From an uncultured Clostridia bacterium (GTDB lineage Bacteria; Bacillota; Clostridia; Christensenellales; CAG-917): 64,000 nucleotides of DNA. The stretch covers positions 1,142 through 65,141 of the forward strand of contig CASDRL010000011.1 in assembly GCA_949283145.1 (NCBI GenBank). Direction: 5' to 3'. This document shows, in pieces, positions 7,754 to 62,987 of this stretch (position 1 is its first letter; each line of letters begins with the position of its first letter). A program made the translations under genes and the position numbers. The notes under the pieces were generated by a model, which ran no database searches, had not been told where the DNA came from, and saw nothing but the letters and a program-made list of their open reading frames with translations.

Positions 7754-7879
7754 CTGAGGGCACTATTCGGCGAATAACTGCGTCAAAGGCACCCTTTCCT
7801 GCGGGTTACGTACGCCTAAGTACGCGCCCCTTGAAAAGGGTGCCTTTTCCTTGTTCTTCATCCGAATATTGCCCTCAGC
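7753..7879. repeat. Nested hairpin element H1, copy 1 (abuts the thrS stop codon)
   Basis: Outer stem gctgagggcactattcgg/ccgaatattgccctcagc pairs at 17 of 18 positions. Inner stem aaaggcaccctttc/gaaaagggtgcctttt (imperfect, one bulged a). Loop core gttacgtacgcctaagtacgcgcc at 7805-7828. Confidence 0.7.
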
Positions 7880-7981
7880 CCCGAGCGCGCTATTTTGCGT
7901 GATACTGCGTCAAAACCCCCGTCGTGGATGCTCACGTACGTCATTGTACGCTCCGGCGTCGCAATTCGCGCTAAACTGCAA

Positions 7982-8007: not shown

Positions 8008-8167
8008 CATTTGCTGGCGCGCGATTGCTCCTTTTCCCCACAAAGCGTGCTCGCTATGACCCCACCGAAAATTCTTTCGGCGGGGATCCCACACTGCGCC
8101 ACTTTGCGGGGACCCCGATGGAGGGGGCTTTTCCTTGTCTGACGCTAAAATATCGCCGTCAGCGAAT

Positions 8168-8673
8168 GGGGCGCTTTCGCGTTCTGCATCCAAATATCGC
8201 GCTCAGCGAATTAGCGTTCGTGCGGGCGTCTCCGAGAACGACGGCTCTCTTTCGGAGACGGAACAACGCGCCGCTCAGCCAAACTTGCACAGCGGGCGCT
8301 TGCGCCTGCTCTTGCAAGTCGCGGCGCGCTATCTGAGTGCCGAGCGCTGGCGTAACATTAAGTAGGCACGGGCGTCGTGCGCGAGCGCCGAATTCCTCCG
8401 CCCGTGCCGGGTTTTCAGTGAGTTCTGTTCGCCGCTCGATTATGTTAGTGCGAGACACAAACTTTTTTTCAAAAGGCGGAAAGAAAGTTCCGCATTGTAG
8501 GAGGAGGGAAGCCCTGTCGGACACGGGGGAGGAAAGCCCGAATGGGGCTCCCCGCAAAATGCATGCATTTTGTGGGGTCCCCGGGTTGGAGGGGGAAATC
8601 AAGATAACCCGCGAGACGAACAGCTCATTCGAAGCGTGTTTGAACACGACGTACAGCTCGATAGAACGTCCCC
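8168..8673. repeat. Collinear non-coding module, copy 1 (conserved blocks d-e-f-g-h)
   Basis: Blocks at 8168-8195, 8267-8329, 8357-8372, 8525-8542 and 8613-8673 recur in the same order at 18638-19287. No credible ORF. Confidence 0.7.
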
Positions 8674-18556: not shown

Positions 18557-18676
18557 CGGCGTCATTTGGCGCACAACTTTGTCAGCGCCCTTTTTTCGGC
18601 TCGTTACGTACGCCTGAGTACGCGCCTCGCCGAAAAAGGGGCGCTTTCGCGTTCTGCATCCAAATGACGCCGTCAG
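18553..18676. repeat. Nested hairpin element H1, copy 2 (abuts the stop codon of the Mrr-like gene)
   Basis: Outer stem ctgacggcgtcatttgg/ccaaatgacgccgtcag (17 bp, perfect). Inner stem agcgcccttttttcggc/gccgaaaaaggggcgct. Loop core gttacgtacgcctgagtacgcgcc at 18603-18626. Confidence 0.7.
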
Positions 18677-58968: not shown

Positions 58969-60393
58969 TTATTCTGCTGTTTGTACATTTTCATCTTCCG
59001 TATCGGCGGTTTGCCGGTTTTGCGCGGCGTCGCGCTCCGCAAGCAGACGCGCACGCGTCCCGGCGTCTTTGCTGCGGACTATGACCGCCGGTATCAGGGT
59101 GAACACCGCCACGATCGCCGCTCCCAGGAACATCTCGTAAGGGTAGTTCAGGATCTCTTCTCCCATGGTCTCGGAGAAGGTGTACCACCCGTAACGGTCG
59201 ATGATGGCGTTGCCTATGGCGGGACCGATGATCATCGGCAGCAGCACGAAGAGGAACATCCTGATGCCCTGGAAGCAGCCCTCTTTCCCCTTCGGGATGT
59301 AGTCGCGGAAGGAGGAGACGAATAGCCCGCTCACCGAAAGCTCCGCCGTCATCGTCACGATGCCCACGGGTATCAGCATGCCGAGCAGAGCCGCCGTGTC
59401 CGACGTGCCGAGGAATTTCAGAAGATATATGCCCAGCGTCCCTATGACGGCTGCCGCCACCAACGGGATGAAGAAGTGTTTCCTTCCGAATTTGTCCATC
59501 AGGAACCCGAGCACCCCCGCCAGCACCGCGGAACACACTATGATGACCGCGAGCGGCATTACATAGTCCTTCATGCCGAGCGTACGCTCCACAAAGTTGA
59601 TGAGATAGGACATGTACACCTGCATGCTCGCGCCCGCGATGCCCGAGCCCGCAAGAGCTATGTAGAGCATCTTGTTCTTCTTGATGACGGAGGGACGGAA
59701 ACCGTAGATGAGTTCCTTGCCGAAGTTCGGGTTGGTGTTTTTGGGGAGTCCGGGCTTGTCTTTCAGGACGAAAAGCCCCACTATGCCGCTCACGATGGGG
59801 ATGGCGCCCAGGATCACGAAGAAGAGCCACCATTGTTCCGTGCCCTTCGCCGTCAGGCTGTCCAGCCCGATGAATACCACCACCATCGCAAACACCGGCA
59901 TCATCGAGAGCACGGTGTCCGTTTTGCCGCGGTTGGTGGTGTCGGTCATGTCCGTGAGCCAGGTGTTGAATGCCGCGTCGTTGGCGGACGACCCCACCCA
60001 CGACATCACGCAGTCCATGATGACGATGCCTGCCACCAGCCCGCCGAGCTGCTCGGGAGAGTAGTCGATGGGAAAGAGCGCGAACACCATGATGGTCAGC
60101 CCCCACAGGATGAACCCCCACGACACGTAGACGGAGCGCTTGCCCGTCTTGTCGCAGATAGCGCCCGTCACCACCGTCGCCGCCGTCGCGAAGATCGCCG
60201 AAAGCGCCACCATAAGTGTGGTCGCCCACGCCTCGTCCACAAACTCGTCCTGCATGAACTTGGCGAAATACATATTTTCGACGATCCAGGCGATCTGCCC
60301 GATGAGCCCGAAAAAGAGAAGGCAGAACCAGACTTTGCCGCCGAGCGGTGTCGTCTTGGTCGCCGTGGAAGAAACGGAATGTTCGCGTGTCAT
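58969..60393 (-). CDS. MFS transporter (paralogue 2)
   Basis: Trimmed to ATG 60393. By eye about half the residues are identical to paralogue 1. Only a 65-nt gap separates the two genes. Confidence 0.85.
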   Translation of the reverse strand: MTREHSVSSTATKTTPLGGKVWFCLLFFGLIGQIAWIVENMYFAKFMQDEFVDEAWATTLMVALSAIFATAATVVTGAICDKTGKRSVYVSWGFILWGLTIMVFALFPIDYSPEQLGGLVAGIVIMDCVMSWVGSSANDAAFNTWLTDMTDTTNRGKTDTVLSMMPVFAMVVVFIGLDSLTAKGTEQWWLFFVILGAIPIVSGIVGLFVLKDKPGLPKNTNPNFGKELIYGFRPSVIKKNKMLYIALAGSGIAGASMQVYMSYLINFVERTLGMKDYVMPLAVIIVCSAVLAGVLGFLMDKFGRKHFFIPLVAAAVIGTLGIYLLKFLGTSDTAALLGMLIPVGIVTMTAELSVSGLFVSSFRDYIPKGKEGCFQGIRMFLFVLLPMIIGPAIGNAIIDRYGWYTFSETMGEEILNYPYEMFLGAAIVAVFTLIPAVIVRSKDAGTRARLLAERDAAQNRQTADTEDENVQTAE

Positions 60394-60556
60394 TTTCCCT
60401 CGCTTATCAGATGTCGGAACGAGCGATGCCGACCGACCTCGAGTAATATTTTCCGGCGCTTTTTGCGCCCGGAATTTGCCGATGGCATAGGGGAGTGCAC
60501 GGAAAACCGAAAAACACAAGAGCGGCATTCAGCCGCCCGTTCCCCCCTACAAGCTA

Positions 60557-60585
60557 ATTTTACCCTTGCCTACGCGCACTGTCAA
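60557..60585 (-). promoter_or_regulatory. Sigma-70-type promoter for the MFS pair
   Basis: Minus strand TTGACA (60585-60580), 17-nt spacer, TAAAAT (60562-60557). Leaves an approx 155-nt leader. Confidence 0.5.
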
Positions 60586-60736
60586 TACCGAATGCGCGCG
60601 CGTGAGTGAACAATCCCGCCCGAATGCCGTTTTTCTCGCCCCGTGAAAGCCGTATGTGATCCGCTTGAAATCCCGTCCGCGATCGGTTTGATATACAGAA
60701 TCACGCGCGTTTAAATATTGCTGCAAAGGCAGTAAT

Positions 60737-61975
60737 TCAGATTTTGTCGGCTGCTTTAAGGTCAAGTCTAATCATTGTTCTAAAAGCGCCGCTGTAATTC
60801 AACAAACCACCATTGTCATATACGAACGAAGAAAGAGATGCGTTTCCGTAGGGCAACTTGTACCACCAATAGCATGTGCCGGAAGGACCACTATAAGCCC
60901 CTTGTTCCATTGCGTAATCTGTCGGTAGTGATTCGCGGGTGGGAGTTATATTGAAAGTTGTATCAAACGTTAAATCTGCCGATGTCAGATCTTCTATTAA
61001 AGGAAGTGTTACGTAATCATCGTCTATTTTTTCCATCAACGCTTTTTCAGTCTCGTTGAAGGCAATATTATAGAATTCGTTATTTAGCCAATTTCTGATT
61101 TCGGTTTCTTCCCAATATACCATTTTGGGAATGCTGTGATATTCCCTGCAATCCAGACATTTTTCCGACAAAAGGTAAAGCGTTTTGTCTTCATATTTCA
61201 TAACGCGCCAACTTATTGGCTCCACGCGGAAATATTTGCCGTTTTTGAATTTGTACAGCTCGTCTCCGCGCCGGTAGTAATTTTTGGGCAGCGGGACCAG
61301 ATCCTTTTTCCAAATCGAGAACATTTTTATCTCGGATTGCGGATACTGTCCGAACATTACGGTTCTGATGCCGTTGGAATTTACTGTATGATGCAAAAAT
61401 TCATATCCAACCAGCTCAAGATCTTGGGCATTTTGTTCGGTAGTTATATTCCATTTGCGTAACTTTTCGTATAAAGTAGATATGTGAGACATATCGTTTG
61501 CGTCTGCCGATCTGCCTACAAACGGATAATCATCATCAAATGTCTCACTGATAAGGCGTGTCCGTTTGGAGTTGCGCCTAGCCCGTTCCTCATCATTTAA
61601 TTGAGAAGTTTCGTCAAACAATTCGGTCGTATTTTTGTTGCCGATGTTCACTGAAAAATAACTCTTTAAAGATCCGTCATCGGTTTTCAACAAGGCGATC
61701 TCTTTCTCTATTGATTCGGAAGCAAATACATGCGGAGAAAGATAAAAGACGACGGCAACGCACCTTGGATCACGGATTCTGCGTTCGATTTGAGTATACC
61801 AAAGATCCGATCCGACCTCTAATCCGCGGTCGTACCAAAATTTTACGCCTAATTCAAACAACTTGTTCAAGTCGTTGTAGACGATGTCGGCATCTTTATG
61901 TGAGTAGCTGATAAAAATGTAATGATCTTCGGGAGTGTATTCCTTTCTGTCGATATATAAACTTGGCAATGTCAT
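60737..61975 (-). CDS. TIR domain protein fused to a DUF6273-like C-terminal domain
   Basis: ATG 61975 with AAGGGGG 9 nt upstream (the track start is TTG 61984). N-terminus YIFISYSHKDADIVYNDLNKLFELGVKFWYDRGLEVGSDLW...VVFYLSPHVFASESIEKEI is TIR-like. The C-terminus has FGQYPQ...EPISWRVM...WEETEIRNWLNNEFYNIAF. GC is much lower than in the flanks. Confidence 0.8.
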   Translation of the reverse strand: MTLPSLYIDRKEYTPEDHYIFISYSHKDADIVYNDLNKLFELGVKFWYDRGLEVGSDLWYTQIERRIRDPRCVAVVFYLSPHVFASESIEKEIALLKTDDGSLKSYFSVNIGNKNTTELFDETSQLNDEERARRNSKRTRLISETFDDDYPFVGRSADANDMSHISTLYEKLRKWNITTEQNAQDLELVGYEFLHHTVNSNGIRTVMFGQYPQSEIKMFSIWKKDLVPLPKNYYRRGDELYKFKNGKYFRVEPISWRVMKYEDKTLYLLSEKCLDCREYHSIPKMVYWEETEIRNWLNNEFYNIAFNETEKALMEKIDDDYVTLPLIEDLTSADLTFDTTFNITPTRESLPTDYAMEQGAYSGPSGTCYWWYKLPYGNASLSSFVYDNGGLLNYSGAFRTMIRLDLKAADKI

Positions 61976-62003
61976 AATGAGCAACCCCCTTGTCTTTAAA
62001 AAG

Positions 62004-62032
62004 ATTATATAAAAGTATTAAATTGCTGTCAA
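62004..62032 (-). promoter_or_regulatory. Perfect-consensus sigma-70 promoter of the TIR gene
   Basis: Minus strand TTGACA (62032-62027), exactly 17 nt, TATAAT (62009-62004). Confidence 0.65.
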
Positions 62033-62048
62033 TACCAATCGTTCAAAG

Positions 62049-62316
62049 TGTTGGCGCGGGACGGGACTTGCTCCGCGCTCGCTATGCTAGTGGACGCATA
62101 CGGCTTGGGGATAACATCGTTCTTGCATTATGGTGCGTTGCTCGCGCTATCACGCCGGGGCGGGAAACTTGCCCCGCAAAGTGTCCTCATTTCATTCCGG
62201 CGCTTTGCGGGGACCCCGATCATTATTAAGATACATCACTTCATGAATGTAAGGCTTGATCATATTTCCGCCCGTTCAAGCCCCGTCCCTCGACAAATTA
62301 AATGCTCCGCTATGAC
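62049..62316 (-). repeat. tRNA-Leu 3'-end-like unit A (with 99-nt apical cassette)
   Basis: 62054-62165 equals 62639-62750 except one base (62087 c vs 62672 a). 62265-62316 is identical to 62778-62829. The tRNA-like tail is mutated (ttggcgcggg instead of tggtgcgcggg). Confidence 0.7.
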
Positions 62317-62453
62317 GATAATGTCACGCAAAATTCCCGCGGAGCGAAAATGAGTGAAAGAGCGATAGTTGCGGAGCGGAGCGGAGAAACGAGGAGCGAA
62401 TGAACGGCTTGCATTTTCGTGACGCGAAGAGGAGCCGCAGGCTCATACGCAAA

Positions 62454-62475
62454 CACCCCGCAATTCTGCGGGGTG
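62454..62475 (-). terminator. Hairpin following unit C
   Basis: Minus strand caccccgcagaattgcggggtg followed by tttg. Confidence 0.4.
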
Positions 62476-62501
62476 TTGCTAATGGCGCCTTGCGGCGACG
62501 A

Positions 62502-62598
62502 TGGTGCGCGGGACGAGACTTGTAAGGAGCGAAGCGACGGAATAGCGATCGTTGCATGAAGTGCCGATCGCGTCAGCCACAGGGAGAAAGTCCCGTCT
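62502..62598 (-). repeat. tRNA-Leu 3'-end-like unit C
   Basis: Minus strand ends ...acaagtctcgtcccgcgcacca. Its 5' GACGGGAC can pair with the 3' GUCUCGUC; one pair is a G-U wobble only in the minus-sense RNA. Confidence 0.55.
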
Positions 62599-62607
62599 GC
62601 GAAAAAG

Positions 62608-62635
62608 AAAGTCCCGTGACACTTCACGGGACTTT
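62608..62635 (-). terminator. Intrinsic terminator immediately after unit B
   Basis: Minus strand aaagtcccgtgaagtgtcacgggacttt followed by cttttt. Confidence 0.65.
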
Positions 62636-62814
62636 GGTGCGCGGGACGGGACTTGCTCCGCGCTCGCTATGATAGTGGACGCATACGGCTTGGGGATAAC
62701 ATCGTTCTTGCATTATGGTGCGTTGCTCGCGCTATCACGCCGGGGCGGGACAACAGCCAATCCGTAGGCTGTTGTCTTTTCCGCCCGTTCAAGCCCCGTC
62801 CCTCGACAAATTAA
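62635..62814 (-). repeat. tRNA-Leu 3'-end-like unit B (with 27-nt apical hairpin)
   Basis: Minus strand ends ...gcaagtcccgtcccgcgcacca, identical over the last 21 nt to the tRNA-Leu 3' end. The 5' GGGACGGG can pair with the 3' CCCGTCCC. Confidence 0.7.
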
Positions 62815-62850
62815 ATGCTCCGCTATGACATAGTCGTCATAGCGGAGCAT
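62815..62850 (-). terminator. Intrinsic terminator of tRNA-Leu
   Basis: 15-bp stem atgctccgctatgac/gtcatagcggagcat, followed by tttaattt on the minus strand. Confidence 0.7.
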
Positions 62851-62851
62851 T

Positions 62852-62939
62852 TGGTGCGCGGGACGGGACTTGAACCCACATGAACGTATTGTTCACTAGA
62901 ACCTGAATCTAGCGCGTCTGCCAATTTCGCCACCCACGC
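62852..62939 (-). tRNA. tRNA-Leu (anticodon CAG), class II with long variable arm, CCA encoded
   Basis: Hand-folded. Acceptor GCGTGGG/CCCGCGC with one G-U pair; anticodon stem CTAGA/TCTAG; loop TTCAGGT. Long variable arm, T-loop TTCAAGT, discriminator A plus CCA. Confidence 0.9.
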
Positions 62940-62957: not shown

Positions 62958-62987
62958 ATTATATGACAAAGCGGCGGGAGGTGTCAA
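62958..62987 (-). promoter_or_regulatory. Sigma-70-type promoter of tRNA-Leu
   Basis: Minus strand TTGACA (62987-62982), 18-nt spacer, TATAAT (62963-62958), about 20 nt upstream of the tRNA 5' end. Confidence 0.6.

Follow-up and report, generated by a model that had tools for sequence, protein, structure and literature searches.

Why should the 3' end of a tRNA gene recur several times in the DNA directly downstream of it, and what kind of sequence lies between the copies? The question is raised by a locus of an uncultured Clostridia bacterium (Christensenellales, CAG-917), located in positions 1,142 to 65,141 of contig CASDRL010000011.1 (assembly GCA_949283145.1). This stretch of 64,000 nucleotides (nt) is called hereafter the window, and coordinates are those of the window unless another locus, designated by an L number, is named. 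Its gene for tRNA-Leu(CAG) is followed, on the minus strand, by three copies of the tRNA 3' end. A sequence-only reading of the locus had offered two explanations: attachment-site (att) scars left by integrative elements and since decayed, or a family of tRNA-like or minihelix non-coding RNAs (ncRNAs) co-transcribed with the tRNA. Both are partly supported, each capturing a part of the picture. The tail copies, as they are called here, are the 3' ends of modular non-coding units, and the feature is real, conserved and structured. We favour, tentatively and with slightly less than even confidence, the interpretation that the array consists of tRNA-trailer cassettes similar to the rtT units of Escherichia coli, reshuffled when tail copies recombine and probably expressed as read-through transcripts.

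Tail copies and the units that they end

The copied source, CAAGTCCCGTCCCGCGCACCA, comprises the last 21 nt of tRNA-Leu. Its first copy, DR1, had been described as exact, which the analysis confirmed, and identity to the tRNA end runs to 23 nt (62633-62655). For the second copy, DR2, two substitutions had been counted, and there is actually only one. The third, DR3, does carry the mutated ACCA end ascribed to it, its extent being corrected to 62054-62070. In 100 shuffled sequences, no tail-like match with three mismatches or fewer was obtained; the tail copies are far beyond chance. The cassettes fall into two unrelated families, E, which is 217 nt long and found twice, and U2, which is 133 nt long, and identity to the tRNA begins at the same T-loop base, C56, in both. 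Nothing significant is shared between E, U2 and a further segment, U3, beyond the tail copy. Along the minus strand, the order is tRNA, E1, U2, U3, E2 and then the promoter of a TIR-domain gene. The features of the array are as follows.

62958-62987, minus: promoter of tRNA-Leu, consensus sigma-70 (TTGACA, 18-nt spacer, TATAAT)
62852-62939, minus: tRNA-Leu(CAG) gene (ARAGORN; Rfam tRNA model, 48 bits)
62852-62872, minus: DR0, the copied source, last 21 nt of tRNA-Leu, from C56 (T loop) to A76
62635-62851, minus: unit E1, 217 nt, made of hT, X, long hairpin, Y and DR1
62813-62852, minus: hairpin hT, 17-bp arms and 6-nt loop, then TAATTTG; opens unit E1
62778-62829 (equal to 62265-62316), minus: X block, 52 nt, 100% identical in E1 and E2
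62790-62802, minus: 5' strand of helix P1, GGGACGGGGCTTG, complement of tail-copy C56-C68; 13-bp closing helix with one G-U
62743-62786, minus: long hairpin, made of P2 (GGGCGG/CCGCCC) and P2a (GACAACAGCC/GGCTGTTGTC)
62639-62750, minus: Y1 block, 112 nt, including most of DR1; invariant motifs GGCGTGATAGCG and AGCGGAG
62635-62655, minus: DR1, exact 21-nt tail copy
62502-62634, minus: unit U2, 133 nt, made of the terminator, GACGGGACTT (62588-62597, tail complement), body and DR2
62608-62635, minus: canonical intrinsic terminator, 12-bp stem and CTTTTT; opens U2
62502-62522, minus: DR2, tail copy with one C>T
62317-62501, minus: segment U3, with a hairpin at 62454-62475 followed by TTTG
62050-62316, minus: unit E2, made of half of hT, X2 (62265-62316), a 99-nt insert (62166-62264), Y2 (62054-62165) and DR3
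62054-62070, minus: DR3, 17 of 17 nt identical, then CAAC in place of ACCA

E1 and E2 are two copies of one module. The repeated block of about 112 nt recognised from the sequence alone holds (62639-62750 and 62054-62165 are 99% identical), but it understated the repetition, to which the 52-nt X block and the module as a whole were added; the internal insert of the latter is 27 nt long in E1, where it forms the P2a hairpin, versus 99 nt in E2. Because E2 has lost ACCA and lies downstream of terminators, it is probably a silent duplicate. Eighteen nt of its insert (62203-62220) are found again, in reverse complement, at 8102-8119.

Long-range helices between an upstream strand and the tail copy had been proposed, and both were recovered. 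In E1, GGGACGGGGCUUG (62790-62802) pairs with CAAGUCCCGUCCC over 13 bp, the fold of E1 having a minimum free energy of -81.6 kcal/mol and a z score of -5.2; in U2, GACGGGACUU pairs with AAGUCUCGUC (z -4.8). Closure of P1 leaves a single-stranded 3' tail of 8 nt, GCGCACCA, instead of a minihelix. The G-U wobble pointed out in the U2 helix is present, but it is a single-nucleotide polymorphism of the source strain only, other strains having a C. The hairpins reported downstream of DR1 (12-bp stem and CTTTTT, 62635-62608) and of DR2 (CACCCCGCAgaatTGCGGGGTG in U3, 62475-62454, followed by TTTG) exist as well.

A promoter scan of the tRNA strand found 62958-62987 as the sole promoter-like site upstream of the array. 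Similarly, the terminator at 62608-62635, located 3' of the E1 tail copy, was the only one in the region that passed the scan on that strand. It abuts the tRNA in strains and species devoid of E, and E1 sits between the tRNA and this very terminator. Hairpin hT is a possible weak terminator or processing hairpin. That the units are ncRNAs co-transcribed with tRNA-Leu, as suggested earlier, appears plausible.

Conservation and variation of the units

Relatives were found by a scan of metagenome contigs with the 21-mer and by look-ups of the neighbouring FtsX homologue; the FtsX-homologue loci L012-L014 gave no information, since their contigs stop short of the array. At least three further lineages have E-like units, 217-218 nt long and located 3' of a 100% identical tRNA-Leu; the units are conserved in several lineages of gut Clostridia. 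Type B units (L024, L025, L036, L044) share 81% identity with the window E, type C units (L031, L038, L043, L045) share 56%, and type D units (L021, L032) are partial; the window itself represents type A. In L045 the E unit is present twice in tandem. Homologous arrays were found in human-gut assemblies (L031, L044, L045). The 21-nt tail is invariant, while the remainder of E is 54-56% identical between types, and Y and the tail half always move as one piece. As for U2, it adjoins the tRNA in L015, is tandemly duplicated in L017, a metagenome-assembled genome from NCBI, and comes after a recombinase remnant in L051; these copies are 92-98% identical to the window U2. Segment U3 adjoins the tRNA directly in L020 (91% identity). 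Wherever the contig reaches that far, unit copies lie in tRNA-Leu(CAG) arrays.

The spoIIIA operon beside the array, which is 72-75% identical between lineages, served as a coding yardstick. Both E (81% between types A and B) and U2 (92-98%) exceed it. Conservation better than that of coding DNA argues against decaying scars, and requires either selection or recent horizontal spread. Of the att-site explanation, the flavour of a recombination site stands, with the common start at C56, the presence or absence of whole units, and the use of the site by serine recombinases in relatives (see below). Its "decayed" part is contradicted by the constant length of 217-218 nt, the invariant tail, the conservation above coding level, and helices compensated in three to four lineages.

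Compensation was seen in an alignment of nine E units (A1), from which RNAalifold recovered P1, P2 and P2a; pairs were counted on the structure stated here. P1 was 94% paired across the nine units, and its changes were only G-U or A-U, workable on the tRNA strand. In P2 and P2a, pairing was complete (100%); four base pairs had both partners replaced, twice in lineage B and twice in lineage C, and every P2/P2a substitution was compensated. The covariation score was 0.140, versus 0.081 in shuffles (0/500 reached 0.140) and 0.03-0.09 with slid partners. At the primary-sequence level, motifs GGCGTGATAGCG and CTTGAACGGGCGG were kept, and AGCGGAG, just 5' of the tail, was invariant in all nine units. 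No conserved open reading frame (ORF) was found in E, nor a conserved small ORF analogous to tpr.

Comparison of related strains, as the sequence-only reading had suggested, revealed that the differences between them are of complete units, delimited by the tail copies: units are gained, lost and duplicated there. In all, 23 metagenome contigs have a gene for the TIR protein, and the order E1-U2-U3-E2-TIR is repeated in contigs of other samples (L008, L009). In L007, E1 is missing, with a junction precise at the tail copy. E2 has the short 27-nt hairpin in place of the 99-nt insert in L002, L003, L004, L007 and L010, and L009 has a deletion within Y. Empty alleles exist in lineages A, C and D (L007, L046 and L035, respectively), and E is a discrete insertion between the tRNA ACCA and the downstream flank in A (window versus L007) and in D (L021 and L032 versus L035); homologous deletion would give the same product. 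The empty type C flank was compared with Y as a possible decayed version of it, and the similarity was not significant. Many contigs break within or beside the array, as expected since it is made of repeats.

Some further variation was noted at the locus. In L005 (3529-3560), where E1 is missing, the tRNA 3' end runs straight into the U2 terminator, 16 nt being gone and CACCA removed; the junction reads ..CCCGTCCCGCG|AGTGTCACGGG, and represents either a damaged allele or a mistake of assembly. The loop of the U2 terminator is AGTG in the window (62620-62623) and CACT in L015 (15371-15374), and that of the U3 hairpin (62462-62467) is AGAATT, AAAATT or AATTTT depending on the strain (compared with L002, L005 and L007). 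Such loops flipped between genomes suggest template switching at these palindromes. In L017 (12740-13160), about 190 nt of the promoter region upstream of tRNA-Leu are tandemly duplicated.

Known families and mobile elements were then searched. Rfam gave only the tRNA, both at the gathering threshold and at E<=10, and ARAGORN called a single tRNA and none of the units; the units are thus not "tRNA-like" by either tool, and a tRNA pseudogene reading of them was rejected. The whole region had no blastn match in phages or plasmids. Exact-word scans, which used the type A sequence and are weak negatives given their limited sensitivity, yielded no match in viral contigs for the X core, the Y core or the 21-mer, and none in metagenome contigs for the Y core. 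The sole match of the X core among GTDB representatives, in Labrys sedimenti (L011:1-460), was discarded as a chance match: the 22-nt core occurs there three times, 96 nt apart, in an apparent tandem repeat coding on the opposite strand. A dispersed repeat or miniature inverted-repeat transposable element (MITE) was also rejected, no further copy being present in the 64-kb window.

The absence of an integrase noted earlier was borne out. None was found by Pfam among the 42 longer ORFs of the window (ORFs below 120 aa and a few others being left out), nor among the gene calls that surround the array on L001; the window otherwise contains housekeeping DNA of a spore-forming Firmicute (McsB, ClpC, ThrRS, MurG, YqfD and others). 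The integrase-bearing relative next to a unit, whose search had been proposed, did not turn up: in the blastn and exact-word searches above, none sharing X or Y was found in phages, plasmids, viral contigs, GTDB representatives or metagenome contigs. Two decayed genes for large serine recombinases do end at the tRNA-Leu 3' terminus, at L024:12284-12646 (-) and L051:5820-6470 (+). Their ends read ...TTCCGGCAC(T/C)C(G/T)GCACCA, and are followed by hT and E in L024 and by U2-U3 in L051. Homologues diverge just past FRHSAP, that is, they read into different flanks, and this looks like a family of elements using the tRNA-Leu end as attB. These recombinases were rejected as mobilisers of E or U2, because only about GCACCA is common with the tRNA and the element ends are unrelated to X and Y.

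Explanations for the array

The closest known counterpart was found in E. coli. On the K-12 genome (NC_000913.3), tyrV is followed 3' by three tandem units of 178 nt, each ending in AATCCTTCCCCCACCACCA, which corresponds to the 3'-terminal 19 nt of tRNA-Tyr and starts in the T loop. The first unit is annotated as the small RNA (sRNA) RttR (rtT; rttR, RF00391) and ends exactly at ACCA, and its predicted fold has a GGGGAAGGAU/AUCCUUCCCC closing helix and an ACCACCA tail. According to PMC3318445, which cites Bosl & Kersten (1991), rtT is an RNA from one repeat unit of the tyrT operon; a preprint (bioRxiv 10.1101/2024.07.17.603846) calls its mode of action unknown and a tie to the stringent response possible. 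The design is identical in both organisms. In each, the units directly adjoin a tRNA gene on its 3' side, share its strand and end in the tRNA 3' sequence of about 20 nt, T loop through CCA (21 nt here versus 19 nt). They are repeated, E being present twice in the window and in tandem in L045, and U2 in tandem in L017. Finally, an internal complement of the tail closes a helix of 10-13 bp, leaving a single-stranded ...ACCA tail; the register extends no further than the initial nucleotides of the acceptor 3' strand (C68 in E and rtT, C66 in U2).

The two systems differ in other respects. Different tRNAs (tRNA-Tyr versus tRNA-Leu) and phyla are involved, and two unrelated families are interleaved here, versus a single one in pure tandem. 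In the window, a hairpin or terminator comes after each tail copy, a hairpin and U-rich tract part the tRNA from E, and no conserved Tpr-like ORF is present. Expression, which is known for rtT, is only a prediction for the units described here.

If the cassettes are indeed shuffled in the trailer, the process may be pictured as follows. All units having the same end as the tRNA, any pair of tail copies could recombine, and this would add, delete or duplicate whole units, either by a RecA-type route, by unequal crossing-over, or by homology-anchored uptake of foreign DNA. Such exchanges would leave the tRNA intact and adjacent to a terminator, and would yield the variation among strains. Transcripts started at the tRNA promoter might read through the weak hT and continue across E1 as far as the strong terminator (62608-62635). 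As with rtT, the tRNA-like end of E1 would then be trimmed by the tRNA 3'-maturation machinery, which would free a compact structured RNA.

Several observations weigh against this interpretation. The hairpin and TTTAATTT between tRNA and E are kept in types A to C, although the type C stem sequence is wholly different, and in type C a scan flagged hT with its U-tract as terminator-like. These conserved signals may stop most transcripts, and E may therefore be transcribed poorly. The P1 5' strand and the long hairpin are also present in empty alleles that have neither Y nor a tail copy (L046 and, in part, L020), and are therefore not exclusive to the units. When the whole transcript is folded at equilibrium, the partner of X is the 3' strand of the tRNA itself. 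No structure of the Y body was supported by RNAalifold in the nine units, and conserved primary motifs without a fold suit protein-binding DNA equally to RNA. As one strand of P1 is fixed by the tRNA tail, two-sided covariation is impossible in this helix, and with only three to four lineages the covariation rests on four events. Finally, the Rfam rtT model (RF00391) has no match at the gathering threshold or at E<=10, and no sequence similarity exists, so that the likeness is architectural and rtT an analogue, not a homologue.

The main rival explanation is entirely at the DNA level. The tail copies would be att cores of integrative elements aimed at the part of tRNA-Leu from the T loop to the 3' end. 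E and U2 would be minimal cis-mobilizable remnants, in which attL directly meets attR and which are roughly as long as an attP; they would be accreted at the tRNA and moved or excised in trans by an integrase from another locus, any RNA being irrelevant. We consider it possible, if doubtful. The islands at ssrA in Dehalococcoides have 20-bp repeats starting midway through the T loop, arranged in tandem stacks, some of them without integration modules (PMC3146451), and here too the identity block starts at one and the same T-loop base in E and U2. Cis-mobilizable elements (CIMEs) are an established concept; they keep only attL and attR, and their arrays grow by accretion (PMC5704250). As in the Dehalococcoides islands and the ICESt1-type elements of Streptococcus, serial direct repeats of about 20 nt from a tRNA-type 3' end, starting in the T loop, are found; repeats of the target 3' segment bound the units, the content of the array varies between strains, and the units have no integration gene. 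The discrete insertion of E after ACCA, with four different flank contexts among the lineages, the existence of empty alleles, and the fact that the newest unit adjoins the tRNA fit as well. The constant 217-218 nt with motifs GGCGTGATAGCG and CTTGAACGGGCGG could reflect phased protein-binding sites, and the site is a hot spot of integration and rearrangement, judging by the serine-recombinase remnants (L024, L051), the variable downstream synteny and the low-GC TIR cassette. However, known elements of these types are kilobases long and carry genes, whereas the units have 112-196 non-coding nt plus the repeat, are more conserved than the flanking genes, and have compensated helices; neither a cognate integrase nor a full-length relative was found, within the limited sensitivity of exact-word searches for X and Y. 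Precise loss at the copies is given equally by homologous deletion, and the compensated hairpin and the recurrent 10-13-bp tail complement in E, U2 and rtT are left unexplained. The tail copies themselves may well have originated by recombination of an integrase type or driven by homology.

A neutral origin seems rather improbable to us. It supposes that unstable stacked hairpins undergo unequal crossing-over, slippage or template switching that duplicate the tail and its flank, gene conversion keeping the copies identical, and that the units serve neither as RNA nor as recombination sites. It accounts for the motif AAGTCCCGT, found seven times in about 820 nt on both strands and once within the U2 terminator stem, for the duplication of ACGGGACTTTCT 21 nt apart, for the flipped hairpin loops among strains and species and the duplicated promoter region of L017, and for the 99-100% identity of E1 and E2, indicative of recent duplication or conversion. 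Yet divergence faster than that of coding DNA would be expected, and the opposite is observed; unit length is constant across lineages only 54-56% identical, all P2/P2a substitutions are compensated, and simple tandem duplication of the native flank does not yield a Y-plus-tail block travelling whole. Another reading, very unlikely, takes the units for tRNA pseudogenes, or for genuine tRNA-like minihelices that act as substrates or mimics for tRNA enzymes. The 3' strand of the T stem and acceptor stem is indeed present in them, with ACCA, and a helix with that strand is possible. But besides the search results above, the sequence 5' of the copy cannot build a T arm (two of five pairs possible), and the helix pairs 56-68 as one continuous strand, with an 8-nt tail, which is not the geometry of an acceptor/T-arm minihelix. 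Scarcely credible, lastly, is chance similarity or an assembly artefact collapsing or duplicating repeats: many contigs of other samples break in or near the array and L005 has its odd truncated tRNA junction, but no shuffle matched, the same unit order occurs in different samples (L008, L009), and homologous arrays occur in other species and data sets (L017, and L031, L044 and L045 from human gut). In independent metagenome assemblies, where absence of the repeats would have pointed to an artefact, the array is present.

Two other kinds of elements were compared. MITEs and repetitive extragenic palindromes (REPs) are short non-coding hairpin-forming units, and P1 resembles a terminal inverted repeat; the units differ from them in that they are not dispersed, and that the "inverted repeat" is the tRNA tail itself. 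The ncRNA 3'ETS-leuZ (from an external transcribed spacer) is cut from the trailer of a tRNA transcript and ends at the operon terminator. It is not known to contain a tRNA-tail copy or to be repeated or cassette-like, and no counterpart of the sRNAs with which it pairs as a sponge is known here.

The trailer-cassette interpretation can be extended, in a way that we regard as speculative and unlikely. E, U2 and rtT would then form an unrecognised, convergent class of "tRNA-trailer RNAs", matured via a borrowed tRNA 3' end, spread by recombination at that end, and acting on tRNA biology. For instance, they could lure away enzymes or defence nucleases directed at the 3' end of tRNA-Leu, or could regulate how pre-tRNA-Leu folds, by means of the segment that is complementary to the T-arm and acceptor strand of the tRNA itself.

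The TIR-domain neighbourhood and the meaning of the array

Downstream of E2, two features lie outside the unit family.

62004-62032, minus: consensus promoter of the TIR-domain gene, 21 nt past DR3
60737-61975: TIR-domain/DUF6273 gene, GC about 0.40 versus 0.59 for the genome

The units had been placed directly upstream of the TIR promoter. This is so in the source lineage, to which the link of E2 with the promoter is specific, since elsewhere E occurs without a TIR gene. An 11-nt repeat, GGTATTGACAG, bounds the gene (62026-62036 and 60579-60589) and corresponds to the -35 regions of the promoters of the TIR gene and of a major facilitator superfamily (MFS) gene; the TIR gene resembles a cassette dropped into the MFS promoter (60579-62036). 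A TIR-less allele was sought via the MFS protein, the exact protein being found on the source contig only. Just past the TIR gene, 60668-60681 contains an inverted degenerate tail motif, AAATCCCGTCCGCG; comparable near-matches occur only about twice per strand in the other 60 kb. The MFS leader of about 190 nt and the 5' coding part (60274-60560) have deletions that differ among strains (L001-L009), and a 77-nt deletion in this region of L001 means that L001 is not identical to the window. The leader matched no Rfam family. Elsewhere in the window, a MITE-like element with terminal inverted repeats GCTGAGGGCACTATTCGG...CCGAATATTGCCCTCAGC is present at 7754-7880, 8160-8215 and 18564-18665, and also in L020.

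For decades, rtT has been an orphan curiosity of E. coli with no agreed function. A non-homologous, independent family of the same design is now found in gut Clostridia, which provides a second test system. It suggests that the design, in which a body is combined with a closing helix and a tRNA 3'-end copy, is itself selected or self-propagating. For the prediction of genomic islands, the array is a warning against taking every short direct repeat of a tRNA 3' end for the boundary of a decayed island, and the many contigs that break in it matter for the assembly of tRNA-adjacent regions from metagenomes.

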